A stretch of DNA of 64,000 bases from Alphaproteobacteria bacterium (GTDB taxonomy: Bacteria > Pseudomonadota > Alphaproteobacteria > UBA2136 > UBA6156), in the NCBI GenBank assembly GCA_027485835.1, contig JAIXQG010000002.1, forward strand, positions 138,232 through 202,231, read 5' to 3'. The notes beneath the pieces were generated by a model. That model was not told the DNA's origin. It ran no database searches and worked only from the letters and a program-made list of their open reading frames with translations. Position 1 is the stretch's first letter. Each line of letters begins with the position of its first letter. Positions 1 to 64,000 of this stretch are shown here, one piece after another. The translations under genes and the position numbers were made by a program.

Positions 1-198
1 AAAGGCGAGCAACTGGTGCTGTTCACAACTGAGGCTAAGGCGACGAAAGAGGCCTTCCGTACCTTTGCCAAGGCCAAGGGTGCGGCCGAGCTGATGTTCC
101 CGCGTCACCTGAAAATCATCGATAAGCTACCGACGCTGGCGACGGGGAAAGTGAATTATCCCAAGCTGACGGAGATGGCAGACGAGGTTATTAAGTAA
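1..198 (+). CDS. C-terminal fragment of an AMP-dependent synthetase/ligase (acyl-CoA/acyl-ACP synthetase family); 5' end lies outside the window
   Basis: ORF runs in frame from the window edge. The C-terminal motif 'LPTLATGKVNYPKL' is typical of the AMP-binding-enzyme C-terminal domain. A hairpin + T-run terminator follows at ~214-236. Confidence 0.45.
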   Translation, partial: KGEQLVLFTTEAKATKEAFRTFAKAKGAAELMFPRHLKIIDKLPTLATGKVNYPKLTEMADEVIK

Positions 199-213
199 CC
201 TCTCTATGAAGAA

Positions 214-236
214 ACGGCCCTTTGGGGCCGTTTTTG
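214..236 (+). terminator. rho-independent terminator (aaacggccc-tttg-gggccgttt + T-run)
   Basis: GC hairpin followed by tttttgtt immediately after the stop of the upstream + strand CDS. Confidence 0.5.
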
Positions 237-237
237 T

Positions 238-531
238 TCAGGCACATGTGACGAACCATAATGCGAGGAGACACAGTGCTGCGGTGCCGAGGATGAGCCA
301 GACGATACGGTCAACATTCCTTTTCCACTGTTCACTGCGCTCTGGCGATTGCAGATTTTTCCGAAAGAGAAGGATAAAGACCAAAAGGATAGCCGAAACG
401 ACCAAGCGTATATCGGTATTCGTGGTAACTGGCCAAATAAAGGTGGTAACGACGCATCCCAGCAATACAGATACGATGCCATAACGCATCCTATTCCACC
501 CCTTGGGGCTTAAAGGACTGTTGAGATTCAT
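238..531 (-). CDS. small 3-TM membrane protein (97 aa), translationally coupled to hemB
   Basis: Its ATG (531..529) overlaps the hemB stop as TAATG. The product has three hydrophobic helices. The region is visibly AT-richer than hemB. Confidence 0.45.
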   Translation of the reverse strand: MNLNSPLSPKGWNRMRYGIVSVLLGCVVTTFIWPVTTNTDIRLVVSAILLVFILLFRKNLQSPERSEQWKRNVDRIVWLILGTAALCLLALWFVTCA

Positions 532-1508
532 TATTCAGCCAGCCAGCGCGCCACTTTGGGAGCAAAGTAGGTGATGAGGATGTCGGCACCGGCGCGGCGG
601 AGGGAAGTCATGCTTTCCATCACCACGCGCTTTTCATCGAGGGCGCCTTTTTCAAAGGCGTAGCACATCATGCTGTACTCGCCGCTCACTTGGTAGGCCG
701 CCAGCGGCATGTTGGATTGCTGGCGGATGCGGGCGAGGATGTCGAGATAGAACATGCCCGGCTTGACCATCAGGATGTCGGCGCCTTCGGCTTCGTCCAG
801 TTCCGCCTCTATCAGCGCCTCACGGGCGTTAGCAGGGTCCATTTGGTAGGTTTTACGGTCGCCCTTAAGGTCGCACCCCGCGGCGGCACGGAACGGCCCG
901 TAAAGGCCACTGGCAAACTTGCTGGCGTAGGCCATGATGGGGGTATGCTCGAAGCCTTCGGCGTCGAGGCGTTCGCGAATGGCGGCAATCTGGCCGTCCA
1001 TCATGGCGGAGGGCGCGACAATATCGGCCCCCGCGCGGGCGCAGATGTAGGCCTGCTGGGCGAGATTTTCCAAGGTATGGTCGTTATGCACGTGGCCGTC
1101 AGCGGTTAATACGCCGCAGTGGCCGTGGCTGGTGTACTCGCAGAAGCAGTTGTCGGAGATCACATTCATATCCGGACAGGCATCCTTGGCGCGGCGGATC
1201 ATCCGCGCCAGCAGGCCGTCGTCTTTGAGGCTATCCGACCCCGTTTCGTCTTTATGGTGGCTGACGCCGAACAGCAGAATGCTGCGGATACCGGCGGCGT
1301 AGGCCTCCTTCACGGCCTTATCCATGGTTTTTTCCGGATGGCGGAAAATGCCCGGCATGGAGGAAATCGGTGTGTTTTCCGAGATGCCTTCTTCAATGAA
1401 CATCGGGTAGACCAGCTGGCTGGCGTTCAGCTGGGTTTCGCGCACCATGGCGCGCAGGGTTTCGGTGCGGCGCATGCGGCGCGGGCGGTAGGGCAGGTCG
1501 AAGGTCAT
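531..1508 (-). CDS. hemB: porphobilinogen synthase (delta-aminolevulinic acid dehydratase)
   Basis: 325 aa with N-terminus '[20 protein letters not shown]...[10 protein letters not shown]', the classic HemB signature. Its start ATG overlaps the hemA stop (ATGA). Confidence 0.93.
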
Positions 1509-2728
1509 GAGGCGAGCTTTCGGTTGAGGTTGGATAACTGGATACTGAGCGCTTGCGTCAGCTGCGCGATGTGCGCGGGGGTATGTAGCGGGCCGGGCGT
1601 GAGGCGCAGGCGCTCTTCGCCACGCGGCACGGTGGGGTAATTGATGGGCTGGACGTAGATATCATGCGCGGACAACAGAGCATCCGATAACTGTTTACAC
1701 AGCGCGGCCTGCCCCACGTGCAGCGGCACGATATGGCTGGGCGTTTGCACCACGGGTAAACCGGCATCCGACAGGCTTTTTTTGAGGCGTGTGGCGTTGT
1801 CGTGCAGTTGGGTGCGCAGGTCTTCGTGGGCGCGCACATAACGGATGCTGGCCAATGCCCCCGCCGCGATGCTGGGCGGAATGGCAGTGGTGAAGATGAA
1901 GCCGCCACCAACGCTGCGGATGAAATCGATACACGCCGCGCTGGCGGCAATGTAGCCGCCAATCACGCCAAAGCCCTTAGCTAATGTGCCTTGGATGATA
2001 TCGATACGCTGCGCGAGGCCAAGCTTGGCCGCCACCCCTGCCCCTTGCGGGCCGTAGAGGCCGACGGCATGGACTTCGTCGAGATACGTGAGGGCGCCGT
2101 ATTCTTGGGCGAGGTCGCAGATGGCCTCGATAGGCGCGATATCGCCGTCCATAGAATAAACCGATTCGAAGGCGATGATCTTGGCTTGCTCCTTCGGGTA
2201 CAGCCTCAGCTTGGCTTCCAAATCGGCAAGGCCGTTATGCTGAAACACCTGCTTTTGGGCGCGGCTTTGACGGATGCCTTCAATCATCGAGGCGTGGTTT
2301 TTGGTATCGGAGAAGATGATGCAGTCCTTCAGGTTTTGGCCCAACGCCCCCAATGTGGTGGTGTTGGCCAAGTAGCCGCAGCCGAACAACAGGGCGGCCT
2401 CTTTGCTGTGGAGGTCGGCTAGCTCGGCCTCCAGCTCCACATGAAGAGGTGTGGTGCCGGAGATATTGCGCGTGCCCCCTGCCCCCGCGCCAAAGGCGTG
2501 CAAGGCCTGCTGCATAGCTTGCAGCACCACGGGGTGGCGGCCCATGCCAAGGTAATCGTTGCTGCACCACACGGTGACGTGGGCGGGCGCGGTTTGAGAG
2601 GCTTCTGGCAGGCCATGGAACGCCATGGGCGGCAGAGCCATATCGCGCTGCATGGGGTGGAAATAGCGGTAGCGGCCTTCGTTCTGGATCTGCTCCAGTT
2701 TATCGGCAAAAAACGTCTCGTAATTCAT
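1505..2728 (-). CDS. hemA: 5-aminolevulinate synthase (ALAS, PLP-dependent alpha-oxoamine synthase)
   Basis: Start chosen at [23 protein letters not shown] (ALAS N-terminal signature). PLP-transferase family motifs run throughout. ALAS-type hemA is characteristic of Alphaproteobacteria. Confidence 0.88.
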
Positions 2729-3277: not shown

Positions 3278-3367
3278 GGGTATTACTCCTGAATTCTCTA
3301 ATTACTTGGGGCTATATGGGGGGATTTGGCGGGAGTGTCAAGGATTTTTGGTATTAAAATATAAAGC

Positions 3368-3395
3368 TTGACTTAAGGTATACAATAAATATTAT
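3368..3395 (+). promoter_or_regulatory. sigma-70-like promoter (TTGACT-N16-TATTAT) for the inserted membrane-protein gene
   Basis: Read directly from sequence: ttgact at 3368-3373 and tattat at 3390-3395. An SD (acggaga) precedes the ATG at 3432. Confidence 0.4.
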
Positions 3396-3431
3396 CCCAA
3401 CACACATTGACGTGCAAAACGGAGAAACATC

Positions 3432-3827
3432 ATGCAGGTTATTGTTATTCTTCTGATCGGTTGCCTTATATTCAACCTTTTTTGGGGTAGAATTCTGTTA
3501 GCCTTGATGGAATCGCTATCTGATTCTCCGATTCCATACTACCGCACCATCGCACTATCCTCAGTTATTTACATTGGTGCTGTCTTCTATATCCTCGGTA
3601 TCGAAGACTATCACTATTATTACAAGGAAAAAATAATGCCTGTTTTCTTTGTCTTAACGATCTTCGGGCTTTTAGTTTTCACATTCAGAAGACTGATCGC
3701 CCGCTATGCAAGATTAAGTAACGAACACGCTATCATAAACTCACGGTCGGCGATTTATGTCTCGGCAATATGGATCAGTCTTTCTATCTATGTTTTTTGG
3801 TATGAGAACTTGAAAGACTTCATATAA
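3432..3827 (+). CDS. hypothetical 4-TM membrane protein (131 aa), low-GC inserted gene
   Basis: Complete ORF with its own promoter, SD and a downstream bidirectional terminator. Composition is strongly AT-skewed relative to its neighbours. It sits between rpoA and rplQ, which are normally adjacent. Confidence 0.6.
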   Translation: MQVIVILLIGCLIFNLFWGRILLALMESLSDSPIPYYRTIALSSVIYIGAVFYILGIEDYHYYYKEKIMPVFFVLTIFGLLVFTFRRLIARYARLSNEHAIINSRSAIYVSAIWISLSIYVFWYENLKDFI

Positions 3828-3845
3828 AAAACCACGCACAAAAAA

Positions 3846-3870
3846 GGAGCTTTCGCAGCTCCTTTTTTAT
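3846..3870. terminator. bidirectional rho-independent terminator (aaaaaaggagc-tttcgc-agctcctttttt)
   Basis: Perfect hairpin flanked by an A-run on one side and a T-run on the other. It terminates both the + strand insert gene and the - strand rpoA. Confidence 0.65.
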
Positions 3871-3880
3871 TTAACTTTAC

Positions 3881-5890: not shown

Positions 5891-6058
5891 TTATGCCTGG
5901 GTAACGCTGTAACGACCGGTCTTACCGTTCTTACGCTTGTCGCGCATGACGATACGAATACGGCCCAGGAACTTACCGGCCTTGTTACGGGTACGACGTA
6001 CCACTTGCAGTTTACGGTCGCGCACTTTTTCAGCGCGGATGGACGAGGCGTAACGCAT
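5891..6058 (-). CDS. 55-aa very basic protein in the rpmJ (bL36) syntenic position; possible divergent Cys-less bL36-like ribosomal protein
   Basis: Not in the ORF track (<60 aa). Translated manually: MRYASSIRAEKVRDRKLQVVRRTRNKAGKFLGRIRIVMRDKRKNGKTGRYSVTQA. An SD (aaggaag) precedes the ATG. Codon usage is CGT-rich like the neighbouring r-protein genes. It shows weak pattern similarity to bL36 (MKVRxSVK...RRGR...). Confidence 0.4.
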   Translation of the reverse strand: MRYASSIRAEKVRDRKLQVVRRTRNKAGKFLGRIRIVMRDKRKNGKTGRYSVTQA

Positions 6059-8832: not shown

Positions 8833-9402
8833 CTAATGGAGAGGGTCCAGCAAAATAGGCCCCTTCTCGCCCGAGAGGATATCCACAGCTTTTGTGCTAA
8901 ATCCAAACGGATGCCCGACCGCCAAGCTACGTATGAGGGTAAGAGCCTTCGCAAGATACGGATACTCGCGATGATAACTTACTATTAAGTCCTGAATGTC
9001 CGGCGCGACTTTTGATGGATCAGGGAACCGATACACCGCCATAATGGTTGCAAACCAATGCTCCGCTACCTCCGATGACACCGTTTCATATCTCTTCAGC
9101 AACGCGACATTGTCCCGGTAACGATAGATATGCGGCAGATTGGGATAGTCCTCCGGAACAACGTCCGGCTGCCGAAGCCGCCGCGCAAAGGCGTCGTACC
9201 CTTGCCACATAATGCTTTCTTCGCAGAATTTAAATACCGCAGGCGTATCATCCTTCATAAAAATACGGGCAGAGCCCGGTACATGCGCCTGATACCAGCC
9301 ATGGTCTGCTAGAATTCTCCGAAAGGCTTCAGGCGTTTCTTCGCGATACTTATCAAACAGGCTGAGCGCCTGCCATTTCGGAATTTCGGCACGTACAAAC
9401 AT
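8833..9402 (-). CDS. hypothetical cytoplasmic protein (189 aa, aromatic-rich) inserted between rplO and secY
   Basis: Complete ORF in operon orientation. A rho-independent terminator lies upstream and a hairpin downstream. Composition is lower-GC than the flanking r-protein genes. No family recognised. Confidence 0.55.
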   Translation of the reverse strand: MFVRAEIPKWQALSLFDKYREETPEAFRRILADHGWYQAHVPGSARIFMKDDTPAVFKFCEESIMWQGYDAFARRLRQPDVVPEDYPNLPHIYRYRDNVALLKRYETVSSEVAEHWFATIMAVYRFPDPSKVAPDIQDLIVSYHREYPYLAKALTLIRSLAVGHPFGFSTKAVDILSGEKGPILLDPLH

Positions 9403-10942: not shown

Positions 10943-11308
10943 TTAGAATTTCAGGCCAGCGGCACGGGCGGCATCGGCCAGTACGCGGAGGCGACCGGTG
11001 AAGCGGTAGCTACCACGGTCGAAGTACACTTCCGAAATACCGGCTTTGGTAGCACGTTCGGCTACGGTCTTACCGATCACTTCAGCGGCTTCCATACCAC
11101 GGCCGTTCTTGAGGCTGCCACGCAGCTTCTTTTCCATGGTGGTTGCAGAAACCAGGGTTACACCCTTGGTGTCGTCGATGATTTGAACGGCGAGGTTCAT
11201 GTTGCTGCGGTAAACCGACATACGCAGTTTGCCCGGTGCGGCCTGGCGCAGCTTGTGACGCACGCGACGCGCGCGGCGTTCGGTGCTGGTCTCACGAAGA
11301 ATCGTCAT
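10943..11308 (-). CDS. rplR: 50S ribosomal protein L18
   Basis: 121 aa uL18 signature (RLRVxxSxxHIYAQVIDD-like 'RMSVYRSNMNLAVQIIDD'). Confidence 0.95.
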   Translation of the reverse strand: MTILRETSTERRARRVRHKLRQAAPGKLRMSVYRSNMNLAVQIIDDTKGVTLVSATTMEKKLRGSLKNGRGMEAAEVIGKTVAERATKAGISEVYFDRGSYRFTGRLRVLADAARAAGLKF

Positions 11309-19348: not shown

Positions 19349-19669
19349 TTACAGCTTGATCTGCACGTCTACGCCGGAAGCGAGGTCCAGCTTCATCAGC
19401 GCGTCGATGGTTTGCGGGGTCGGCTCGACGATTTCCAGCACACGCTTGTGGGTGCGCATTTCGAAGTGCTCGCGGCTCTTCTTGTCGATGTGCGGGCTGC
19501 GCAGGACGCAGAAGCGTTCGATTTTGGTCGGCAGCGGAATCGGACCTTGAACCTTGGCGCCGGTACGACGGGCGGTTTCAACGATCTCGAGGGTGGATTT
19601 ATCCAGCACGCGGTGGTCGTAAGACTTTAGGCGAATACGGATGTTTTGTGCGGCTTCGGCGTTGGCCAT
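19349..19669 (-). CDS. rpsJ: 30S ribosomal protein S10
   Basis: Start set at [23 protein letters not shown], preceded by an aaggagg SD 8 nt upstream. The uS10 core ([18 protein letters not shown]...HFEMRTHKR) is present. The longer upstream ORF extension is rejected. Confidence 0.94.
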
Positions 19670-19919
19670 GAAGCGTTTCCTCCTTGTGTGCTTACGCTTT
19701 TGCCAGCGCATTGGCACGGTTACGACAAATGCCAAACCCCCTGTTTTGCCAAGGGTTTGGCTTAGACCTGATATTGGCAAACATCTCCAGGTCGCTATCT
19801 TTTTCCTGCCACAGGCATGCATACGCACACGAGGGCTTGGGGGCGATATAGGCGCTGGGGGCCTAGGTGTCAAGCGGAAAACATAGAAAAATGAATGGGG
19901 GTAAGGGATTTTCTTGCGG

Positions 19920-19960
19920 TGGTGGTTTGGGACAAAAAAGAACCTCCCCGTTTGGACCGG
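19920..19960 (-). terminator. rho-independent terminator (cctctccgg-tccaaac-ggggagg + T-run) after the 146-aa hypothetical gene
   Basis: Hairpin followed by ttctttttt on the minus strand, directly after the stop at 19982. Confidence 0.5.
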
Positions 19961-19981
19961 AGAGGTAGTGCGATATTGAGT

Positions 19982-20422
19982 TTAGGCGGTCTGATTGTAA
20001 TGAATGTACAGCAGGGACGACAAATTGTCGCACCACCAACTTCCGATTGCAGAACTCACTTCGACCCTTCTGTTACCCGTAAACATATAGGGATACGGGA
20101 CACTGTCATCCTCCTCCTGAAAGAAGAATGATACCTTCGAAGTCTTGTTGACCGACGCGAGGTAGCTCAGCACGAAGGCATTCAGAGACTCACGTGGAGT
20201 TGGAAGATCGTCAGTCGCATTTTCAGACCCAGCAAGTTCGAGTTCGACGCCGTCGACGAAGATGATTGTATAATCATCCCCACGATATTTCTGTCTCTTG
20301 TCGATAACTTCTATTTTTTTTGCAGCATCCAGAGCTGCAATAAGTTTGTTGCGGTCTGATTCGTTGATCTGAAGGATGGTGCGGATATTGAGAAGGTCGT
20401 CAGCAAACATATCTTTCTCCAT
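19982..20422 (-). CDS. hypothetical acidic protein (146 aa), lower-GC
   Basis: Complete ORF with its own terminator. No recognisable family. AT-richer than surrounding core genes. Confidence 0.45.
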   Translation of the reverse strand: MEKDMFADDLLNIRTILQINESDRNKLIAALDAAKKIEVIDKRQKYRGDDYTIIFVDGVELELAGSENATDDLPTPRESLNAFVLSYLASVNKTSKVSFFFQEEDDSVPYPYMFTGNRRVEVSSAIGSWWCDNLSSLLYIHYNQTA

Positions 20423-20574
20423 TTGTTTTGCTGGTTATTCTGGATACCATCGGCATACCTCACGCGTAATAACAGCCCTTCGGGCCGTACAAACGGTTCA
20501 GATATGTCGATGGCAGAGCCAGTCTACATTCTTATAGCTGCTGGCACATTTTACTTAGCTGACATAAAGAAAAA

Positions 20575-20600
20575 GCCGCCCGAAGGCGACTTTCTCCTCC
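20575..20600 (-). terminator. rho-independent terminator (gtcgcc-ttcg-ggcggc + TTTTT) after the 116-aa hypothetical gene
   Basis: Read directly from sequence on the minus strand. Confidence 0.5.
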
Positions 20601-20615
20601 CCGAAGGGACGTTCG

Positions 20616-20966
20616 TTAAGCTGAGATACCGAGCTTTGCCTTGAAAAAGTTCAAGGCATCGATAGCTTCCTGCAGCGCCCGCTCTGGGCTGAGGCCGAGA
20701 GCGCGGATGTGAACGTCGGTGGAGTGCGCCGCCAGTTCAGCGGCGGCAGCGAGGAAGTCACCACGCGACGCTTGTTCCTGAGCCGCGTACATCGCGGCTT
20801 CAGGGCCGCAATTTGCGGAATCCCAATCCGTCGGTTCGACAGGAGCTGGAATGGCTTTTGTCTTCTTCACCTCATACAGGAAGCGAGCGCGAGCGCCCCC
20901 GCGTACCGGGTAAGAGGTGGCGAAGAACGAAGCGGCAGCGGCAAGATTAACAGCAGTGTTCGACAT
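20616..20966 (-). CDS. hypothetical Ala-rich protein (116 aa)
   Basis: Complete ORF bracketed by a terminator downstream and palindromes upstream. No family recognised. Confidence 0.45.
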   Translation of the reverse strand: MSNTAVNLAAAASFFATSYPVRGGARARFLYEVKKTKAIPAPVEPTDWDSANCGPEAAMYAAQEQASRGDFLAAAAELAAHSTDVHIRALGLSPERALQEAIDALNFFKAKLGISA

Positions 20967-21221
20967 GATTTTGCTCCTATGGCGTTGGTGTCGACAAAAT
21001 GATCAGTCCCTACGGGACAGAAAAACGGCTCAGTACGAGCCAGTTTCCTGTCCCGTACCTAATGGTACTGTAATTCTTTATATACAGCCTCTCCAGCCGG
21101 TTTTGAAGGCGAACTGACAGGCTTTTTTATTCGTTTTATTTCGAGTCTAATTTATTTAAAAACATACAATTAAACCTTATTAAGTATCTACTACATTAGC
21201 TTTACAGCCCTCCTTTCATGG

Positions 21222-21256
21222 TCAAAAAAGGCCCGCCGTTGCTGGCGGGCCTTGTG
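21222..21256 (-). terminator. rho-independent terminator after gcrA (aggcccgcc-agcaa-cggcgggcct + T6)
   Basis: Perfect stem followed by a T-run on the minus strand. Confidence 0.6.
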
Positions 21257-21276
21257 TCGTGATTGTGATTGGTGGT

Positions 21277-21855
21277 TTAGACCATGGGTCGGTAGCGGCT
21301 GAGGCCGCGGTCATGAAGATCCGTGAAGTGACCAATCTTGACCTTGCCATTAGAGGCTTTCAAACGCTCCAAGTGACCGACGCAGATACTTCCACCCTCT
21401 TTAGCGGCTGGGTTGCCGCAGTAGAGAGCCTGTCCGCCCAAGTCAAAGCGGTCATCGCCGGGCATAAGGTACGTTTTGCACTGACCGTCGGCCAGTTCAA
21501 GCAACGTAACCCCCCGACAGGTAAAGCTTGGCTTCGCCTCGTCTTTCTTTGGCTTTCGTGGCGTTTGGCTGCGGGGCACTACCGGTTGCAGCAGGGCGGA
21601 GTATTTGCCTCCCTTCGGACGTTTGGGTTTGGCCGCAGAGTGTGACGACTTGCCTTTTGCCGCAGGCTTTTTGGCAGAACCTGCCGCCCGCTGCTGGGTT
21701 TTGCGTGCCGGAAGCTTGAGACGATACGCCTTACCCACGACGCAATTGACGGATGGCGCCCCTAACTTTTTGGCGATTTCGCTTTTGGAAAGCCCCTCAT
21801 CCCAATACTTTTTCAGATCTTCGACCGCTTCGGCGGTCCATGAGAACTCGGACAT
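21277..21855 (-). CDS. gcrA: GcrA family cell-cycle transcriptional regulator
   Basis: 'MSEFSWTAEAVEDLKKYWDEGLSKSEIAKKLGAPSVNCVVGKAYRLKLPAR' N-terminal domain, a basic linker, and a conserved Cys-containing C-terminal domain. Confidence 0.82.
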   Translation of the reverse strand: MSEFSWTAEAVEDLKKYWDEGLSKSEIAKKLGAPSVNCVVGKAYRLKLPARKTQQRAAGSAKKPAAKGKSSHSAAKPKRPKGGKYSALLQPVVPRSQTPRKPKKDEAKPSFTCRGVTLLELADGQCKTYLMPGDDRFDLGGQALYCGNPAAKEGGSICVGHLERLKASNGKVKIGHFTDLHDRGLSRYRPMV

Positions 21856-21934
21856 GTCTTACTCCTCGTAAAGAGTCATTTAATAGGAGAAACTGGCTGC
21901 GTAGTGAGTGTTTGTAAGATGTATTTGCATAAGG

Positions 21935-21965
21935 TGCAAAAGAAAAGGGGGCTAAAGCCCCCCCT
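21935..21965 (-). terminator. rho-independent terminator (gggggggc-ttta-gccccc + T-run) after the 129-aa membrane-protein gene
   Basis: Read directly from sequence. Confidence 0.5.
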
Positions 21966-21973
21966 TCCCTCAA

Positions 21974-22363
21974 TTAAAATAGAAAACCGCTCACAAATTC
22001 CCAAACGGGCGTAAAAGGCGCCCAAAGAATTTTGATTGTCGCCCATGCGATAAGCAAGGCGCTAAAATGCATAGCTAGTAACATAAAGACACTGCAAATA
22101 TGCACCATTTCAGCCATCACTGCATAAAGCCTGAATGATTCTTCCCTAAAAAGCATCATCAGAGCCAAGAGTATCAGAAGTACTATTAAACAGGCTGAGG
22201 ACTCAATTAACATTGTCCCTCTCTGCCATGCATTTTTCTCAAGAAGTCGGTTCACATTCAGGCATTTGCCTGAGAGCTTATGCTTGCGTTTAAACCCTTT
22301 AGCCACGTTTTTTGCCTTAGAGTTCAGTTGGTTTCTTAGCTCATTTAAGAGTCCTTTTTTCAT
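21974..22363 (-). CDS. hypothetical small membrane protein (129 aa), low-GC
   Basis: Basic N-terminus plus two or three hydrophobic helices. AT-rich. Own terminator. Confidence 0.45.
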   Translation of the reverse strand: MKKGLLNELRNQLNSKAKNVAKGFKRKHKLSGKCLNVNRLLEKNAWQRGTMLIESSACLIVLLILLALMMLFREESFRLYAVMAEMVHICSVFMLLAMHFSALLIAWATIKILWAPFTPVWEFVSGFLF

Positions 22364-22539
22364 GTTGTTTTTTCCTTATGATAGACCCCACGCGCGGCTG
22401 GGGTGTGCGCCGAGAACCGTTCCTCGTATAGATTTCCTTCCGTTTTAGAGGGTTAAAATGATTATAGATTCACGCATTCTAGTTATTAGTATACACAATG
22501 AATACACCAATTCAAGTATACAAATCAGTTTGGTTCCTA

Positions 22540-22572
22540 AAAAAAGGGCCCCGTGGGGCCCCTTCTCGTTGC
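22540..22572 (-). terminator. rho-independent terminator after rpoC (ggggcccc-acg-gggcccttttttt)
   Basis: Hairpin followed by T7 immediately after the rpoC stop. Confidence 0.65.
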
Positions 22573-22578
22573 GGTCTG

Positions 22579-26703
<4,125 letters not shown>

Positions 26704-26718
26704 AGTGCCAGCCTTTCT

Positions 26719-31134
<4,416 letters not shown>

Positions 31135-31386: not shown

Positions 31387-31572
31387 ATGCTTTTTCTGCT
31401 AAACTTATTTTCGCCCAATCACTGGGAATGGAAGCCGGAGTTCACGCCTGACACTCCCCTTCATCCGCTCCTAAAGTGGATTGCATGCGCGTTGCTTACC
31501 TATCTCGCCGTCTATCTGGTGTTCCTGATGCAAGCCCCCATCCGTGGCGTTATGAATCTGATTTTCTCCTAA
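31387..31572 (+). CDS. hypothetical small single-TM protein (61 aa)
   Basis: Strong SD (aaggaggtgacc ATG) with a hydrophobic core. Located antisense to the rpoB 5' region. Confidence 0.35.
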   Translation: MLFLLNLFSPNHWEWKPEFTPDTPLHPLLKWIACALLTYLAVYLVFLMQAPIRGVMNLIFS

Positions 31573-31589
31573 CACACGAGGATCATAAC

Positions 31590-31757
31590 ATGTCCCACGA
31601 TATTCCTCCCGACGTGCCGGATAGATATACTATCCGCCTGCCCTTCCTTGGCTGTTTTCGGTCACCGCTACCGGCCAATGTATGGATCTTAGCCGCCATT
31701 TGCGGCGCCACCGTGCTGTATGGCTATAGCGCCATGATGCGCGGCGATTTTTTCTAA
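31590..31757 (+). CDS. hypothetical small single-TM protein (55 aa)
   Basis: SD (gagga) 7 nt upstream of the ATG. Hydrophobic helix. A rho-independent terminator follows. Confidence 0.35.
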   Translation: MSHDIPPDVPDRYTIRLPFLGCFRSPLPANVWILAAICGATVLYGYSAMMRGDFF

Positions 31758-31767: not shown

Positions 31768-31795
31768 ACGGCCCGAAAGGGCCGCTTTTTTTGGC
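31768..31795 (+). terminator. rho-independent terminator (cggccc-gaaa-gggccg + T7)
   Basis: Read directly from sequence. Confidence 0.55.
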
Positions 31796-32149: not shown

Positions 32150-32171
32150 ATGTAATATTACGTTATTACAT
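32150..32171. promoter_or_regulatory. perfect 8-bp inverted repeat ATGTAATA-N6-TATTACAT in the divergent yerC / small-ORF intergenic region (candidate operator)
   Basis: Read directly from sequence. A TTGACG -35-like hexamer lies at 32129. Confidence 0.4.
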
Positions 32172-32187
32172 GCGGAGATCTGTAAAA

Positions 32188-32358
32188 ATGCATCTATTCT
32201 TTTCCACCCCCCTCAAACCTATTACCTCTAAAGAAGAAGCCGTGCGTCGCGTCAAAGCCATCATGAAGCGCAAGGAGGCGGCCGAGATTTGCGACGTTCC
32301 GGTCACCGACGAGCCTTTGCGCGAGCTTCCCAGTCACCTTCGTGACCGCGGCCTTTAA
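32188..32358 (+). CDS. hypothetical small protein (56 aa)
   Basis: SD ggaga 9 nt upstream. A terminator lies at 32376-32412. Divergent from yerC. Confidence 0.3.
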   Translation: MHLFFSTPLKPITSKEEAVRRVKAIMKRKEAAEICDVPVTDEPLRELPSHLRDRGL

Positions 32359-33361: not shown

Positions 33362-33590
33362 AGAGGATTCCCTTCCACTTGGTTACTTTGCCTACGCACC
33401 CCATGTGCGCATGCACACCAGTCTGAATTTCTGTGGAAACATCGCAGCCCCCTAAACAGGAGTGCGGATATTGCCCCTCGGTTGGAAATTAAGCCCCGCA
33501 ATTCGTTCAACAAATTACGTACCATGGGCGCCAACGGTCTTCAGGTGTTGGTGGCTCTATACGGGCCCACACCTGATATGTAAAGCAAAA
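33362..33590 (-). promoter_or_regulatory. rplJ 5' leader (probable L10(L12)4 autoregulatory leader and promoter)
   Basis: 228-nt untranslated region between a terminator and rplJ. Assigned by position only. Confidence 0.3.
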
Positions 33591-33596
33591 AAAGCA

Positions 33597-33626
33597 CCCG
33601 CATACGCTGCGGGTGCCCTTCTCTAC
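33597..33626 (-). terminator. rho-independent terminator after the PCP-like gene (gcacccgcatacgctgcgggtgc + T7)
   Basis: Read directly from sequence on the minus strand. Confidence 0.5.
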
Positions 33627-33637
33627 TTATATATAGC

Positions 33638-35242
33638 TTAATCCAGCTTGGCTTTTAAAGTCGCCTTGCGCAGCATGCGGGCCAGCGGAGGCACAACTTT
33701 GGCCAAACGGTCTGCCAACTGGCCCAGCAACTGGCGGCGGCTCAGCACAAACTGCATGTTCAGCACCACACCCAGCAGTGGGGCACCTACCAGCAGCAAG
33801 CTATCGGTGGCGCGCTTAAGCTCGGACTGTGTGGTGACACCCGCTTGCGCCAGCAGCAGCGTGCGAGCACTTGCAGAAGCGACAGCAACAGCATCCACAT
33901 TCCCGCGGTTCACGGCGGCCAGCGGGCTACCATCCACAATCACGATATCGGCCATGTCGGTCAGCATATCGAACAGTACCGGCAAACCACCCGCCTCGCC
34001 CAGCTTGCTCAGGGTTTCCGGATGGCGCGGTGCGGCCAGAAGCTTCATATTCTCGTTACCGGGCATGGGTTGCAAAGCATCCCAGCCGCCTTTTTTGGGT
34101 TTGGCGCCCTTCGGCAATTCCCAGTTACCATCGCCCAAGCCCAGCCATTGGCTCAGCATACGGTCACGCAGGTTCATATCGACCAGAATCACGGTTTTAC
34201 CTTGCTCAGATGTCCGTTCCGCCAACAGCAGGGCCAGCGTGCTGCTGCCTTCCGAGCCCTTCGGCCCCAAAACCACTAACGGCCCACGCAGGTTGCGCAC
34301 CAGAGAGCGGTGCAGGCGGCCGAGCTCACTGAACTCCGACGGGCGCAGCTTTTTGCCACCGGCCATCACATGCAGACCGCGCGGGGTAATATTCAGTTTG
34401 CCCAGCCACGGCAGGGTACCCACAACTTGCATATCACTGGCCTTAGTTGCGTCATCTTCACCTTCAATCACCGCACGGTTGGCAAAGGGCAGCTTTTGCA
34501 GCAAGCCGAACAGCAGGCCACCGAGCAGACCCGCCAGAATCATGTTCGCTACAACACGGGCAGTACCTTGCAGCGGCTCACTCATCGTCGCGGTTTCGGC
34601 AAACCATACCAGCGCTTGGCTCCCGTGGCGGCCAAAGGCTAAATTCACACGGCGCAGGTCGCTTTGCAGCTGCACGGTGTCGCCCTGCAATTTTTCGCTA
34701 CGGGCGTTCAATTCCAAGCGGGTCGCTTCGTCGGCACCATCGGAGGTGGCCAAACGACCGACGATTTCTTTCAGCTCCTGCTGGTTTTGCAGAATCATCT
34801 GCTCCAAGCGCATGCGCTCCGGTGCCAGCAAGGCCTGAATAAAGTTATAGGCCAGTGCATCCGTCATCTGCTCCAAACCTTCCGGCTTGGTGCTGCGGTA
34901 GCTGATGGTCATCAAATTGTTGTTAATGACGCGCAGCGAGACCTTATCGGCCTCAATCTTACGGTGTGCATCAGCACCTGTATCTGCTAGCAATTGCGGG
35001 TTGACCAAAATCTGGCGTAAAGCTTCACCCTGACCAGGCGCGCTAATACTCTGTAACAGTGGCGATTTCGCTTGATCCGACTGCACTTGCAACAAGGCGG
35101 TAGCCTCAAATGTGGGCGGCACCTGCACGCTGTAAATTGCCGCCAGCAGAGTGAACACCACTACAGGCACACCTATTTTGACGCGCACGCGCCACATTTC
35201 TGCCAATGTATTCAAGATGATATTCATAGAGCGCGCTTTCAT
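33638..35242 (-). CDS. polysaccharide co-polymerase (Wzz/GumC/ExoP-like) protein with degenerate C-terminal BY-kinase-like ATPase domain
   Basis: 534 aa with N-terminal TM + periplasmic coiled-coil + second TM topology. C-terminal P-loop-like 'VVLGPKGSEGSSTLA' lacks the Walker-A Lys (GKS->GSS). 'VILVDMNLRD' is a degenerate Walker A'. 'DIVIVDGSP' is Walker-B-like. Confidence 0.65.
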   Translation of the reverse strand: MKARSMNIILNTLAEMWRVRVKIGVPVVVFTLLAAIYSVQVPPTFEATALLQVQSDQAKSPLLQSISAPGQGEALRQILVNPQLLADTGADAHRKIEADKVSLRVINNNLMTISYRSTKPEGLEQMTDALAYNFIQALLAPERMRLEQMILQNQQELKEIVGRLATSDGADEATRLELNARSEKLQGDTVQLQSDLRRVNLAFGRHGSQALVWFAETATMSEPLQGTARVVANMILAGLLGGLLFGLLQKLPFANRAVIEGEDDATKASDMQVVGTLPWLGKLNITPRGLHVMAGGKKLRPSEFSELGRLHRSLVRNLRGPLVVLGPKGSEGSSTLALLLAERTSEQGKTVILVDMNLRDRMLSQWLGLGDGNWELPKGAKPKKGGWDALQPMPGNENMKLLAAPRHPETLSKLGEAGGLPVLFDMLTDMADIVIVDGSPLAAVNRGNVDAVAVASASARTLLLAQAGVTTQSELKRATDSLLLVGAPLLGVVLNMQFVLSRRQLLGQLADRLAKVVPPLARMLRKATLKAKLD

Positions 35243-35488
35243 TGCGTTGTGCCTCGTGGGGCTTCTTTTTTACCGAGGGCCAAAGCCCACCTTTGTTGGT
35301 TGGATATTATAGAGAGGTGCACAAGTCTGGCAATGGTGCTGCCAGACATATCGGCAACCACGATGCACAACACCTTCATACGCTTGACACTTCCGCAACA
35401 TCAGCCTATATCGCCCTCACTACACCCGCGCGTTTAGGCGTTTAGCGGTCTGTGTAGGAGTTATATCAACGAACGGAGAGTATTAGCC

Positions 35489-35920
35489 ATGGCTAAGAAA
35501 ATCGCCGGCTTCGTCAAGCTGCAAGTGCCAGCTGGCGCCGCCAACCCGGCCCCGCCCGTAGGTCCCGCTCTGGGCCAAAAGGGTTTGAACATTATGGAAT
35601 TCTGCAAGGCCTTCAACGCTGCCACCCAGCCGCCGAAGTTTGCCGCAGGCACCCCGATTCCCGTCATCATCACCGCATACGCCGACCGTACCTTCACCTT
35701 CGAGCTGAAGACCCCGCCGGCCAGCTGGTACCTGATGCAAGCCGCCAGCATTAAAAAGGGCGCCAAAACCCCGAACGTGCCGATCGGCCAAGTTAAGCGC
35801 GCTGAAGTGAAGAAAATTGCTGAAGCCAAGATGGTCGACCTCAACGCCAACTCTGTTGAGCAAGCCATGAAGATTATTGAAGGCAGCGCCCGCTCTATGG
35901 GCCTGACCGTAGTAGACTAA
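35489..35920 (+). CDS. rplK: 50S ribosomal protein L11
   Basis: 143 aa with '[43 protein letters not shown]', uL11. Confidence 0.97.
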
Positions 35921-35934
35921 GGAAGGACACGACC

Positions 35935-36642
35935 ATGGCTACTAAGAAGTCCACTAAACTCACCTCCGCCAAGCCGAAAAAGGTTTTCCCGGAGTTTGAC
36001 CGCCTGAAGGCCTACAGCCTTGATGAAGCGCTGAAGCTGCTGGCTACCATGCCGGCTGCCAAGTTCGACGAATCCGTCGACGTTGCGCTGAACCTGGGCG
36101 TAGACCCCAAGTATAACGACCAAATGGTACGTGGCGTTGTGTCGCTGCCCCACGGCAACGGTAAAACCGTCCGCGTGGCCGTGTTCGCCAAGGGCGCCGC
36201 TGCCGATGAAGCCCGTGCCGCCGGTGCCGACGTTGTGGGCCTGGAAGATCTGATTGCTCAGGTTGAAAAGGGCGACATCAACTTCGACCGTGTAATCGCG
36301 ACCCCCGACTGCATGCCGCAGCTTGGTAAAATCGCCCGTATCCTCGGCCCGAAAGGCATGATGCCGAACCCAAAGCTGGGCACCGTAACCCCCAACGTGG
36401 CCAAGGCCGTGAAGGACGTTAAGGGCGGGATGATCGAGTTCAAGGTTGAAAAAGCCGGTATCATCCACGCCGGTGTCGGCAAGCGCAGCTTCTCCTCCGA
36501 CAAGCTGGCTGCCAACATCAAGGCCTTGGTAGACGCTGTGAAGGCCGCCAAGCCCTCCGGCGCCAAGAGCAACTACCTGCTGAAGCTGGCGATTACCGCC
36601 ACTCAAGCCCCTGCCATCAAGGTAGACTTGAGCAGCCTGTAA
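35935..36642 (+). CDS. rplA: 50S ribosomal protein L1
   Basis: 235 aa uL1. Confidence 0.97.
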   Translation: MATKKSTKLTSAKPKKVFPEFDRLKAYSLDEALKLLATMPAAKFDESVDVALNLGVDPKYNDQMVRGVVSLPHGNGKTVRVAVFAKGAAADEARAAGADVVGLEDLIAQVEKGDINFDRVIATPDCMPQLGKIARILGPKGMMPNPKLGTVTPNVAKAVKDVKGGMIEFKVEKAGIIHAGVGKRSFSSDKLAANIKALVDAVKAAKPSGAKSNYLLKLAITATQAPAIKVDLSSL

Positions 36643-36652
36643 GGTTCGCTTA

Positions 36653-40783: not shown

Positions 40784-41074
40784 ATGATCTCGTCTACTGA
40801 AAACTTTGTTATTTCGTGCAATGACGTACCCGTCATCCTGTTTCTCTCCGATGTGGGAGGAATTCAGGGCCATGTGGTCACCGAATTGAACAAAACGGCC
40901 AACAGGAAGTATCCGCAACTCACGCCGCTGATCAAGGCCCATTACTTAGGGGATCAGGTTGTCGGCGATTTGCCCGTTGTTAAGTTGGCAACGCCTCAAG
41001 ATAAGGATGCCGCCATTACTTCCGCTGAGGAATGGCTGGAGAATCACTTCAGCTTGACAGCCTCCCTTCTCTGA
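40784..41074 (+). CDS. hypothetical protein (96 aa)
   Basis: Near-perfect SD (caggaggaacac ATG). A terminator hairpin lies at 41088-41115. No family recognised. Confidence 0.45.
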   Translation: MISSTENFVISCNDVPVILFLSDVGGIQGHVVTELNKTANRKYPQLTPLIKAHYLGDQVVGDLPVVKLATPQDKDAAITSAEEWLENHFSLTASLL

Positions 41075-51759: not shown

Positions 51760-52011
51760 ATGGCCAAACTCCCTTCGCGCTACTACGCGTTTGCCGTGCC
51801 GCTGTTGTTAAGCTTTGTCATGTCCTTTGTGGTTTCCGGCATTTCTACGCTGCGCGGTGTTGGGCTAGCGCCCGATTTTCTGAATATCTGGATGCATGCG
51901 TGGATGGCCTCGTGGATGGTGGCCTTCCCTGTGGTACTGTTTGTGTTACCTGCCGTGCGGAACATTGTCGGCCTGTTTGTGGAAGAGCCGACGCGTCCGG
52001 CGAAAGGCTAA
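51760..52011 (+). CDS. small 2-TM membrane protein (DUF2798-like)
   Basis: 83 aa with two hydrophobic helices. The start lies 4 nt after the previous stop. Confidence 0.5.
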   Translation: MAKLPSRYYAFAVPLLLSFVMSFVVSGISTLRGVGLAPDFLNIWMHAWMASWMVAFPVVLFVLPAVRNIVGLFVEEPTRPAKG

Positions 52012-52626: not shown

Positions 52627-53037
52627 CTACTTTTTGTCGCAGTTGGCGGTGCACACCGTTTCTTCCGTTACCGTACCGCCGCAGCGCACGTGGGCGGCGC
52701 GGGCCGAGGCCAAGCAGTTTTCCTCGCACTTGCGCGGGCTGCAATCGCGTTCGTCCAGCATGGAACGCTCGTAGCCCCAGCCTGCGCCACGGTAGCCACC
52801 GCTGCCTAAACCGATACTGGTATGGAACCCGCCCGGGTTGTAGCAGCTACGGGCCATTTGGCGGCAGTTTTCGACACAGGTGTTGGACATGATAATGACG
52901 TTGGAACTGCATAAACGGCCACTTTCGGTTGCGGGCTCGTTCAGAGTGTAGTTGGTGCGGTACACGGGGCCGCAGGCGGCTAATACAGATACGAAGGCTA
53001 TAGTACAGATCAAACCTGTGAGACGATGGATGTTCAT
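52627..53037 (-). CDS. Cys-rich lipoprotein (136 aa)
   Basis: Signal peptide with lipobox 'VLAACG' and 12 Cys in the mature part. Convergent with exonuclease paralog 1 with no spacer. Confidence 0.5.
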   Translation of the reverse strand: MNIHRLTGLICTIAFVSVLAACGPVYRTNYTLNEPATESGRLCSSNVIIMSNTCVENCRQMARSCYNPGGFHTSIGLGSGGYRGAGWGYERSMLDERDCSPRKCEENCLASARAAHVRCGGTVTEETVCTANCDKK

Positions 53038-53092
53038 ATCTTCATATTACCATGATTCAGAATTCGTTACGCCCATTTTACCGTAAGAAATT

Positions 53093-53127
53093 TGACATTT
53101 CCTATAGACATATGTATACACGAATCA
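53093..53127 (+). promoter_or_regulatory. candidate promoter TTGACA-N17-TATACA upstream of exonuclease paralog 2
   Basis: Read directly from sequence in the AT-rich divergent intergenic region. Confidence 0.3.
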
Positions 53128-53154
53128 CACGAGGCCTACAGAGGGAATACCACT

Positions 53155-53835
53155 ATGCCTGATGCATCCCATGTTATTTTTGACACTGAATATGCCACTG
53201 ATGAAGGCGCTCGCGATAGCGACTGGGGTTGCCTCGGTCACCACCGCGAAATCATTCGCATCGGTGCAGCGCGCATCGTTCCGGGCCAACCTTGGGAGAG
53301 CTTTGAAACGCTCGACTTGCTGGTTAATCCGGTATTTGCAGCGCATACCGCCTATACCGAACAGATCACCGGCATCACCCAGGAAATGTTGGATGTAGAT
53401 GGTTGTGATGCTGAACGTGCTTTCCGGCAACTTTATATGTTTATTGATGGTTTGCCCGCGCTTTCGAACGGCAATGACATCAACAAGATTGCCGAAACTG
53501 CCGGACTACAGGGATTCGTCATGCCTTTTGACCCCCTCGAATTCGGTAGTGTACTGAAGCCGATGTATCGGGAACTGGCCAAACACGTTGCCCCTGAATT
53601 GCCTGAGCGGCCATGGGTGAACCACTCCTCCGGCACACTCCACAGACTGGTGGGCATTGACCTGCCGGAAGGATTGGGGGAAGTGCACAACCCGTTGCGC
53701 AACGTCTGGTCGATCCACGTCACACTGGAAGCCCTGCACGAAAGGTACAATGCCGACGTCGTTTCGGAAGTTCTGGATGGAATGGCCAAACGAAAGAGTG
53801 CGTTTAATTACCATTATATGCGAATGGACGATTAA
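53155..53835 (+). CDS. DEDDh 3'-5' exonuclease, ERI-1/KapD-like (paralog 2)
   Basis: Start at MPDASHVIFDTEYATDEG. Same motif set as paralog 1 ('EQITGITQEML', 'HNPLRNV'). Confidence 0.78.
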   Translation: MPDASHVIFDTEYATDEGARDSDWGCLGHHREIIRIGAARIVPGQPWESFETLDLLVNPVFAAHTAYTEQITGITQEMLDVDGCDAERAFRQLYMFIDGLPALSNGNDINKIAETAGLQGFVMPFDPLEFGSVLKPMYRELAKHVAPELPERPWVNHSSGTLHRLVGIDLPEGLGEVHNPLRNVWSIHVTLEALHERYNADVVSEVLDGMAKRKSAFNYHYMRMDD

Positions 53836-53837
53836 TG

Positions 53838-53912
53838 ACATGCCCGCCCAGAGACATCTGGGCGGGCATGTCGTTTTGGCGATAACTAAAAAAAGCCCCA
53901 AATCGGGGCTTT
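53838..53912. terminator. two consecutive hairpin terminators (catgcccgccc...gggcgggcatg; aaaaaaagcccc-aaat-cggggcttttttt)
   Basis: The second is bidirectional (A7/T7) and also follows the minus-strand rpoD stop. Confidence 0.6.
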
Positions 53913-63068: not shown

Positions 63069-63606
63069 CGATCTGTTTTACGACCGGATTATTGCGGGAA
63101 CCTTGAAAGGCCGCAAACTGCTGCTGCCGAAGAGTGAGGGCGTGCGGCCGAGCAAAAACCGTGTGCGGCAGGCGGTGTTCAACCTGCTGGGTGCACGTTT
63201 GAATTTGGATGGCCTGAATGTGGCCGACCTGTTTTGCGGCAGCGGGGCTTGGGGTTTGGAAGCCCTGAGCCGCGGTGCTGCCAAGGTGGTTCTGGTAGAC
63301 ATAGACGACCGCACGGCGGCGACCAATGTGAAGGACCTTGCTGCGGCCAACGTTGCTGTTTTTGCAGCCGACGTGCGCCAGTGGAAGCCTATTACGTTGC
63401 TGGATGTGGTGCTGCTGGACCCGCCCTACGGCAAAGGCTTGGCGCAGGGTGTAATTGACCGTGCCGCGTTGATAGGTAAGCCAGATAGCTGGTGGTGCGT
63501 GGAAACCGGCCGTGACGAACCCCTGAACTGGGACGGTTTTGCAGATGTGGAGTACCGGGATTATGGCGGGAGCCGCGTGTGGGTGGCACGCTATTTAGTT
63601 AACTAA
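63061..63606 (+). CDS. rsmD: 16S rRNA (guanine966-N2)-methyltransferase
   Basis: GTG start overlapping the upstream gene. 'DLFCGSGAWGLEALSRGA' and 'DPPY' motifs. Confidence 0.85.
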   Translation: MANDLFYDRIIAGTLKGRKLLLPKSEGVRPSKNRVRQAVFNLLGARLNLDGLNVADLFCGSGAWGLEALSRGAAKVVLVDIDDRTAATNVKDLAAANVAVFAADVRQWKPITLLDVVLLDPPYGKGLAQGVIDRAALIGKPDSWWCVETGRDEPLNWDGFADVEYRDYGGSRVWVARYLVN

Positions 63607-63615
63607 AAACGAAAA

Positions 63616-63645
63616 CGCCGCCCAACGAAGGGCGGCGTTCTTTAT
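63616..63645 (+). terminator. rho-independent terminator after rsmD (acgccgccc-aacgaa-gggcggcgt + tctttat)
   Basis: Read directly from sequence. Confidence 0.55.
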
Positions 63646-63656
63646 CCGATTGCGGT

Positions 63657-63857
63657 TCAGTTATAGCCGGCAGGCAACTGGCCATTCCAGCCAATGGCGC
63701 CTCCGTAACCGTCGCGCGCAAAGTCGCACAGTTCATCATAAGTAATCGCGCCAAAGATCACGGATTCTGATGGCGTTTTACCCAAGGCTTCGTCACGCTC
63801 GGCCTGTTGCCGGGAACGTGAGGTAATAGAGATAATGTTATTGTTTTCCTTACTCAT
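63657..63857 (-). CDS. hypothetical small protein (66 aa from MSKENNN)
   Basis: Internal ATG chosen. The longer ORF to 63947 lacks support. No family recognised. Confidence 0.25.
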   Translation of the reverse strand: MSKENNNIISITSRSRQQAERDEALGKTPSESVIFGAITYDELCDFARDGYGGAIGWNGQLPAGYN

Positions 63858-64000
63858 GCAATTCCCCGTTGCTGCACATGAAAGCGAACGCCGCACTACA
63901 GCGGCGTTCGAGCTCAGCATCTTTTCGAAATGGGTCAGACGCTGCAACAGCCGTCGTCGGCCATCGTGGCGTGCTGATCGGCCGAGGCCGACTTTTCAGT

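Follow-up and report, generated by a model that had tools for sequence, protein, structure and literature searches.

Do short, GC-poor membrane-protein genes lying at the junctions of a bacterial core gene cluster belong to one mobile family, or are they unrelated genes that came to occupy similar places? The question is raised by a stretch of 64,000 nucleotides (the window) of the Alphaproteobacteria bacterium assembly GCA_027485835.1 (contig JAIXQG010000002.1, positions 138,232 to 202,231), in which ribosomal-protein and RNA-polymerase genes are interspersed with small open reading frames (ORFs). The original prediction, drawn from the letters of the window, had singled out five loci (c1–c5) as genes for short proteins with transmembrane (TM) segments, most of them visibly lower in GC and flanked by intrinsic terminators, with promoters and terminators of their own. 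They were seen as inserted between essential, normally contiguous genes and as pointing to an ongoing process, either a mobile small-gene family or selection for membrane micro-proteins. Our comparison with related genomes makes it rather probable that the five are not one entity, with c1 and c2 being orphans, c3 and the gene pair c4a/c4b fast-evolving and restricted to the clade, and c5 an ordinary gene, and that the slots themselves are hotspots of gene turnover. The loci are heterogeneous, some orphan and others conserved, and the cargo sits at an exact position in slots that have been occupied repeatedly and independently.

The window has an overall GC content of 56.2%, includes the GcrA gene and carries nearly all its core genes on the − strand. 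Its first 9.8 kilobases (kb), including c1 and c2, are 100% identical in a Logan assembly of SRR16126897, possibly the same run as the source of the metagenome-assembled genome. Spanning 64–80 kb per genome, our comparison comprised the relatives V (GCA_005768725.1; 77–93% nucleotide identity to the window), E (L102; rpoA 95%), C (L011; rpoA 81%), J (L099), S (L100), L105 and L107–L110, with L106 also used for the neighbourhood of c3, the outgroups L012 and L013 (rpoA 72%), and about 75 other alphaproteobacteria.

Among the five loci, c2 (3432–3827, + strand) is the only one that lies strictly between contiguous essential genes. This orphan ORF of 131 amino acids (aa) with three to four TM segments is, at 38% GC, the lowest-GC gene in the window, and it occupies a 528-bp cassette (3349–3876; 37% GC) of DNA that has no homology to the relatives and fits precisely between the terminator of rpoA and the promoter of rplQ. 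Its promoter-like site (3368–3395, + strand; TTGACT-16-TATTAT, 10 of 12 matches) stands back to back with that of rplQ, a GGAG Shine–Dalgarno sequence is found at proper spacing, and a bidirectional intrinsic terminator (3838–3870) is common to rpoA and the convergent c2. Hairpins orthologous to this terminator are found in V, E, L108 and L109. On the other side of the cassette, a conserved TTGACA (3336–3341, − strand), present in all clade members and absent in L013, is predicted to be the −35 element of an rplQ-specific promoter and would act as such. An exhaustive phmmer search of 1.84 billion cluster representatives returned only c2 itself, no homologue was found in about 15 billion proteins, and a TBLASTN search of phage and plasmid collections gave no match.

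The gap between rpoA and rplQ is usually short, with a median of 75 bp over 82 alphaproteobacterial loci and just one unrelated genome exceeding 300 bp. Within the clade, four genomes fill it, each differently: the window with c2 on the opposite strand, V with a 115-aa soluble ORF on the same strand, E with a 149-aa ORF that has a TM segment and a Gly-rich region at 62% GC, and C with a PF05635 (23S-IVP) protein plus an S24 peptidase. These four cargos are mutually unrelated; even between the window and V, where the segments are of 528 and 517 bp, gene orientation is opposite and no similarity is found. Five relatives have the slot empty, namely L108, L109 and L110 within the clade and the outgroups L012 and L013. 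The in-clade empty sites all read as the rpoA stop codon, a GC hairpin with a T-tract, 12–60 bp, CTTGACA-N17-CATA, a leader and rplQ, and all four cargos fall precisely into the interval from the hairpin to the −35 element. L013, whose gap measures 42 bp, lacks both.

Turnover of this kind is not confined to one slot. Alignment of the window with V revealed at least eight indels or replacements in 64 kb, every one at a gene junction. Insertions specific to the window (window versus V) hold c1 (293 versus 8 bp), an aminotransferase gene (1365 versus 76 bp), the ORF W_189 (822 versus 105 bp) and an RNase T-like ORF (926 versus 87 bp), those specific to V measure 1236 bp between rplF and rplR and 1464 bp between rplL and a TrpR-like gene, and replaced segments include the c2 cassette and the rpsJ–gcrA segment, among others. 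The class I/II aminotransferase gene (1505–2797, − strand; 430 aa), with 60% GC typical of the host, lies between rplQ and hemB in the window genome only; V and E have 76–385 bp there. W_189 (8833–9402, − strand), a soluble 189-aa orphan between rplO and secY, is missing from V and C, but L105 carries a homologue with 48% identity in this slot; the window genome and L105 are the only ones with it filled. Conversely, the rplF|rplR slot is not filled in the window and holds different ORFs in V, J, S and L105. The replaced rpsJ–gcrA segment (19916–21295) contains orphans of 146 and 116 aa where V has an unrelated 173-aa ORF, the slot between rplL and the TrpR-like gene contains a small soluble orphan (W_62; 32170–32358, + strand) where V has two unrelated ORFs of 160 and 155 aa, and the 926-bp insertion downstream of rpoD (52981–53906), found in the window genome only, carries the 247-aa RNase T-like ORF (53092–53835). 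The slots with varying cargo are rpoA|rplQ, rplO|secY, rplF|rplR, rplL|rpoB and the one following rpoC, and their cargo, which includes the 430-aa aminotransferase, the soluble 189-aa protein, the S24 peptidase and genes of 62–63% GC, is not specifically small, low in GC or membrane-bound.

The second orphan, c1 (238–531, − strand; 49% GC), is a 97-aa ORF with three hydropathy-predicted TM segments, and it lies between hemB and a convergent aas-like gene, not between contiguous essential genes. Its ATG overlaps the hemB stop codon (TAATG), and c1 therefore has no private promoter. Downstream, a bidirectional terminator hairpin (208–236; CGGCCCCAAAGGGCCG) is common to hemB/c1 and the aas-like gene; an orthologous hairpin is found directly 3′ of hemB in V, where 8 bp separate it from the hemB stop codon. 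The 293-bp insertion holding c1 is present in the window genome only, and E has a different filler of 359 bp at the same place. Searching 5.8 billion clusters recovered no homologue of c1 but itself. Among the PHROGs there was one weak match, to phrog_7460 (E = 3e-5), which lies in a hydrophobic segment and may be due to composition.

In contrast to c1 and c2, c3 (21974–22363, − strand), a 129-aa protein with a basic N-terminus, two TM segments and 41% GC, lies between rpoC and gcrA and is positionally conserved in relatives. The rpoC terminator (22546–22561) is followed by a promoter-like site for c3 (22488–22515, − strand; TTGAAT-16-TATACT), and an intrinsic terminator (21941–21968, − strand) could be read directly from the sequence. 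Three homologues with 44–55% identity retain the two-TM topology and a KGFKRKHKL motif (alignment A1), and where the neighbourhood is visible (V and L106) they are found directly upstream of gcrA, as in the window. c3 thus belongs to a family that is restricted to the clade and linked to gcrA in three genomes. Beside it, gcrA itself (21277–21855, − strand) encodes a GcrA protein that shares only 55% identity with its V counterpart, synonymous sites being saturated, whereas the flanking rpoC and ribosomal-protein genes share about 90–95% nucleotide identity with V; given this contrast, the c3–gcrA segment may have been exchanged with a more distant lineage.

Exchange with other lineages is also the core of the alternative that survives best, namely that c1 and c2 came by horizontal transfer, as moron-like cassettes, from a low-GC donor outside the present sampling, for instance a phage, and that the low GC of c3 reflects the import of a divergent allele. 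Morons are reportedly, following Hendrix and colleagues, extra transcription units inserted between the genes of phage operons. We consider this a serious candidate, although short of an even chance. The GC content of c2 (38% against 56%), its atypical codons and its own promoter-like site, Shine–Dalgarno sequence and terminator all fit such an origin, as do the absence of the entire 0.3–0.5 kb of DNA from the empty sites, the recognisably mobile-type cargo of C (PF05635 and S24 peptidase) in the same slot, the phrog_7460 match of c1, and the divergence of the c3–gcrA segment from V (synonymous divergence, pS, saturated), which far exceeds that of its flanks. However, c2 has no homologue in the protein, phage or plasmid collections searched, and the PHROG match may merely reflect the composition of a hydrophobic segment. 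Moreover, acquisition of this kind is compatible with the slots being turnover hotspots and does not exclude it.

An unlikely but not negligible alternative is that part of the ORFs, with c1 as the foremost suspect, represent spacer, regulatory or decayed DNA that happens to be open rather than genes. The chance of an ORF as long as c1 in its 333-bp segment is not small (P ~0.08), its start is ambiguous (97 aa versus 83 aa from gene callers), and it has neither homologues nor a promoter of its own, so the evidence that it is coding is weak; long chance ORFs are, moreover, common in this genome, as exemplified by one of 2827 codons antisense to rpoB and rpoC (see below). What speaks for genuine genes at the other loci is that the lengths of c2 (P = 0.004) and c3 (P = 0.009) are significant, that c3, c4a and c4b are conserved with nonsynonymous divergence (pN) below pS, and that c2 has a properly spaced Shine–Dalgarno sequence. 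Independent gene calls contain c1, c2 and c3.

A third alternative, somewhat less likely again, is that c1 and c2 were born de novo, TM-first, from T-rich non-coding DNA. Among about 80 genes, c2 and c3 have the lowest GC, below even the median intergenic value (0.485), c1 and c4a are only mildly low, and c4b and c5 are average. Both c2 and c3 use TTA, CTA and TCA, codons that are nearly absent from core genes; such usage is typical of genes that are young, of foreign origin or expressed at a low level. The coding strands of c1 and c2 are rich in T (0.30–0.36, the upper value being that of c2), and T makes up 41–45% of codon position 2 in the TM ORFs (34% in c4b). When stop-free ORFs of 130 codons were simulated with the composition of c2, 67% had at least one TM-like segment and 24% at least two, compared with 10% and 0.3% for the composition of the window and 7% with at least one for the complementary strand. 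The association of low GC with membrane character is, therefore, largely an effect of the genetic code on T-rich coding strands: young, weakly selected T-rich strands encode hydrophobic helices by default, while TM proteins require T-rich codons, and hence the two properties coincide. Selection for membrane micro-proteins, the other process named in the original prediction, would not be needed to account for them. T-rich sequence has indeed been proposed to confer TM propensity on emerging genes in a model set up in yeast (Vakirlis et al. 2020, PMC7005711), and both c1 and c2 are strict orphans, as such a birth would predict. Nevertheless, the orthologous sites of the relatives contain no alignable non-coding precursor, the empty sites being of 8–60 bp; the cassette DNA is thus new to the locus, and birth in situ from existing spacer is not supported. 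Furthermore, a 131-codon ORF is unlikely to arise by chance, and c2 is already equipped with a promoter-like site, a Shine–Dalgarno sequence and a terminator. For annotation, these results call for caution, because composition makes small size, low GC and membrane character go together, and the combination is, by itself, no sign of a family or a mobile element.

At the c4 locus (31387–31757), which the original prediction had taken for a single gene, the stated frame holds stop codons, and two tandem genes divergent from rpoB are found instead. c4a (31387–31572, + strand; 49% GC) encodes 61 aa with one TM segment behind an AAGGAGG Shine–Dalgarno sequence, and c4b (31590–31757, + strand; 55% GC) encodes 55 aa with one weak TM (a C-terminal hydrophobic segment) and has a Shine–Dalgarno sequence of its own. 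The orthologue of c4a in V has 72 aa, 50% identity and a ratio of nonsynonymous to synonymous substitution rates (dN/dS) of 0.29, that of c4b in V-type contigs has 52 aa, 57% identity and a dN/dS of 0.25, and the pair is kept in all V-type contigs. A bidirectional terminator (31768–31790) separates c4b from the TrpR-like gene (YerC/YecD, PF01371; 31798–32106, − strand), an unusual occupant of the rplL–rpoB junction that is present in the window and all V-type contigs examined and has its own divergent promoter region with a palindrome.

Conservation of this kind leaves some room, albeit little, for the small membrane proteins being selected partners of their neighbours, with c3 acting together with GcrA or RNA polymerase and c4a/c4b forming a toxin-like pair. 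The linkage of c3 to gcrA in three genomes, the persistence of the c4a/c4b pair and the purifying selection on both loci favour it, but none of these proteins matches a family or a defence system (c4a/c4b have no match in Rfam or PADLOC), c1 and c2 have no conserved partner, and cargo in the same slot is functionally heterogeneous.

Whereas the other four loci, together with several orphans that are not membrane proteins, occupy gaps in the ribosomal-protein/RNA-polymerase cluster, the fifth lies outside the slot pattern altogether. c5 (51760–52011, + strand) has 56% GC, the window average, and is an ordinary member of DUF2798 (PF11391; Pfam E = 1e-18, 67.5 bits against a gathering cut-off of 23.5, with 57 of 59 profile positions covered). 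With a DUF305 gene ending 3 bp upstream of its start, c5 has neither promoter nor terminator of its own and does not sit at an essential junction; the operon DUF305–DUF305–DUF2798 is conserved in V, where c5 is syntenic with 82% amino-acid identity. Judging from their positions in the relatives, c3, c4 and c5 are ancestral within the clade.

Whether the loci nonetheless share a mobile origin was addressed by several comparisons. When the five loci and about 45 junction ORFs from relatives were compared all-versus-all by BLASTP, no match appeared among c1–c5, and BLASTN of all variable segments with 60-bp flanks found only short terminator hairpins alike. Neither target duplications nor terminal inverted repeats were seen between filled and empty sites at hemB|aas and rpoA|rplQ. 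No transposase or integrase was present in the scanned window ORFs (not every ORF was scanned), the flanking genes, the cargo or the Pfam lists for the relatives' loci. Searches of the whole window with Rfam at gathering thresholds and a tRNA scan returned nothing, hence neither a known ribosomal-protein leader nor an integration site at a tRNA or tmRNA gene. Against Pfam, PHROGs and PADLOC, the orphans gave only sub-threshold hydrophobic matches besides the weak phrog_7460 match of c1, and we rejected these matches as evidence of function.

The hairpins at the slot boundaries consist of GC stems of 6–7 bp, a tetraloop and a T-tract, which is the architecture of a terminator. Three near-identical CGGCCC-N3–5-GGGCCG terminators are found in the window (at 215, 2879 and 31769), beside c1, the aminotransferase insertion and c4. 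V has an identical 24-nt terminator 3′ of rpoA, rplO, rplL and rpoD (L002 ~11047–11070, L096 ~19680, L006 ~8500 and L094 ~1464), which reads A5-GGAGCC-TTGC-GGCTCC on the scaffold + strand and GGAGCCGCAAGGCTCC followed by T5 in the direction of transcription, and of which no copies occur in 1.7 Mb of non-clade loci. This suggests that terminator hairpins are copied or converted within a genome. Having considered the repeated hairpins as attachment (att) or repetitive extragenic palindromic (REP) sites, we rejected both, since they are terminators 3′ of rpoA, rplO, rplL and rpoD with or without cargo, and their evolution as orthologues proceeds by compensatory change. A mobile small-gene family, similar to miniature inverted-repeat transposable elements, insertion sequences or integron cassettes, that repeatedly enters core operons is accordingly largely refuted and highly improbable, since the precise intergenic placement of cargo beside hairpins and the three near-identical hairpins of the window and four of V, which it would explain, have to be set against ORFs and flanks without similarity, hairpins that are orthologous terminators whether or not cargo is present, the lack of target-site duplications, terminal inverted repeats, attC-like sites, transposase and integrase in the sequences inspected, and the ancestral status of c3, c4 and c5 in the clade.

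Of the five loci, two thus show the pattern described in the original prediction, two more show it loosely and one does not. Low GC is pronounced in c2 and c3, mild in two loci and missing in c5; one locus had to be divided into c4a and c4b; a private promoter and terminator accompany c2 and c3 but neither c1, with its ATG in the hemB stop codon, nor c5; and insertion between contiguous essential genes applies strictly to c2 alone, loosely to c4 and not to c1 or c5. While the mobile family fell, the idea of an ongoing process survives in part, as comparison with at least five related genomes reveals repeated independent gain, loss or replacement at the same slots, although the cargo is not restricted to the type foreseen. 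Sharing nothing and being ancestral in the clade had been named as the outcome that would speak against the pattern; none of the five shares any similarity, c3, c4 and c5 are positionally conserved in relatives, and c1 and c2 have no homologues.

How might gene-turnover hotspots have arisen in this cluster? In the explanation that we favour, the ribosomal-protein/RNA-polymerase cluster, normally co-transcribed, would have been cut in this clade into units that are separately terminated and re-promoted. The short stretch of a few bases that separates a terminator from the promoter after it would have no function, and the same would apply to that between a stop codon and its terminator. DNA landing in such gaps would break no gene and cause no polar effects, making them selectively neutral landing sites, which may date from the separation of rplQ from rpoA in this clade and from comparable cuts at other places. 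The cargo probably arrives independently of mobile elements, perhaps when DNA of foreign or new origin is inserted illegitimately, and homologous recombination in the strongly conserved genes on either side could then spread it or take it out again. The stronger version, in which terminator–promoter gaps in the ribosomal-protein/RNA-polymerase cluster are recurrent landing pads and nurseries for orphan genes, is a doubtful extension.

Several points weigh against the hotspot explanation. No donor was found for c1 or c2, and the routes by which cargo would arrive are inferred. The identity profile between the window and V, taken in steps of 300 bp, contains no near-identical tracts that would mark recent recombination; synonymous divergence (dS) between the two varies about threefold among genes. 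The promoter and terminator calls are consensus matches, and their counts in scans do not exceed the shuffled expectation; expression of the orphan genes is putative, and c1 may, given its chance length, not be a gene. Because 64–80 kb per genome were compared, the ribosomal-protein cluster may hold no special density of slots within these genomes. Finally, about half of the approximately 50 junction ORFs of the clade have a TM or signal-like segment, and there may be a real enrichment that neutral slots leave unexplained.

The S10–spc–alpha and rplKAJL–rpoBC clusters are textbook examples of conserved gene order. If the gaps do serve as landing pads, the most conserved gene cluster of bacteria would be a preferred site of gene novelty, in which highly transcribed, ultra-conserved flanks expose new ORFs to expression and allow them to spread between diverged lineages by homologous recombination. 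A clade whose cuts are repeatedly filled by unrelated orphans offers a clean natural system for studying where new DNA is tolerated, and it could reveal by what means orphans become part of a genome when no mobile elements are involved. The step forward is modest, since the loci have no known function and the phenomenon fits a described class, that of hotspots lacking mobile elements.

The gene order of the window has further peculiarities. From its start, and mostly on the − strand, it runs through the aas-like gene (convergent), hemB, the aminotransferase gene, rplQ, rpoA, rpsK, rpsM, a 55-aa basic ORF, infA, adk and secY, continues with the 189-aa orphan, rplO through rpsJ, two orphans, gcrA, c3, rpoC and rpoB, and then reaches c4a/c4b (+ strand), the TrpR-like gene, the 62-aa orphan (+ strand), rplL, rplJ, wzz, rplKA (+ strand) and onward. 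The str operon (rpsL–rpsG–fusA–tuf) is missing between rpoC and rpsJ, with c3, gcrA and the orphans there instead (19350–22580), and rplK–rplA is inverted relative to rplJ–rplL, with a Wzz-domain gene in between (33400–36650). A 96-aa orphan beside rpmG (40784–41074, + strand) has a positional orthologue in V with 30% identity and a dN/dS of about 0.47, and is another very fast-evolving small gene, situated outside the ribosomal-protein slots.

An ORF of 2827 codons without a stop (22498–30981, + strand) runs antisense across rpoC and rpoB, codon-aligned with both, and stays open because the two genes carry only 3 TTA, CTA or TCA codons in 2847. The fused rpoBC first suspected from this 2827-aa ORF was rejected, as it is a shadow ORF antisense to separate rpoC and rpoB; naive use of a longest-ORF caller would give a fused giant protein here. 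Other long antisense ORFs lie over rpoA, recJ and rpoD.

Upstream of rpsM, where rpmJ is the usual occupant, the window has a very basic 55-aa ORF (W55; MRYASSIRAEK..., 5891–6058, − strand). Its amino-acid identity across the window, V-type contigs and E is 96–100%; it is called at the matching place in L105, TBLASTN finds it in L109 (89%) and L110 (86%), and a similar ORF exists in C. No Pfam match was obtained. Its very low dS (0.025) had suggested a structured RNA, a reading that was rejected since the differences from C, a more distant genome, are at third codon positions. The ORF is thus coding and may be a lineage-specific ribosome-associated protein.

Among known systems, c5 presents the simplest case, being a full-domain member of DUF2798 that differs in nothing from its family. 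c4a and c4b resemble type I toxins, which are single-TM peptides of fewer than 60 aa with an overlapping antisense RNA, in their size and TM segment. Integron cassettes are likewise small units of one ORF, often an orphan, with hairpin-forming repeats at their borders; here, however, the hairpins are intrinsic terminators, each with a T-tract and located at the 3′ end of a gene, attC architecture and an array are both lacking, and no intI was found among the window ORFs scanned (not all were). Typical integron cassettes have no promoter of their own, whereas c2 and c3 carry promoter-like sites. In this respect, c2 and c3 are closer to phage morons, being single genes of deviant composition with their own promoter-like site and terminator inside a conserved operon-like array, although that array is a chromosomal core cluster (rpoA, rplQ, rpoC, gcrA) with no phage genes nearby, the two have no phage homologues, and an autonomous promoter and terminator are lacking for c1, c4b and c5. 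With TM-first de novo genes (PMC7005711), the orphans share their short length, T-richness and predicted membrane location, which composition predicts, but they have no non-coding precursor at orthologous sites, and the published model comes from yeast, not bacteria. The closest likeness is to the hotspots lacking mobile elements for which homologous recombination at conserved core flanks has been proposed as the driver (Oliveira et al. 2017, PMC5635113), which are likewise bounded by core genes, hold different accessory genes in relatives, turn over rapidly and have no integrase or transposase. The slots described here differ in being of single-gene scale (0.3–1.5 kb), in lying inside the S10–spc–alpha/rplKAJL–rpoBC cluster and in having an insertion point fixed to the gap between terminator and promoter, recombination through the flanks being a proposal in their case. 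What we describe is, therefore, a known type of phenomenon in an unusual place, the interior of the ribosomal-protein/RNA-polymerase cluster.

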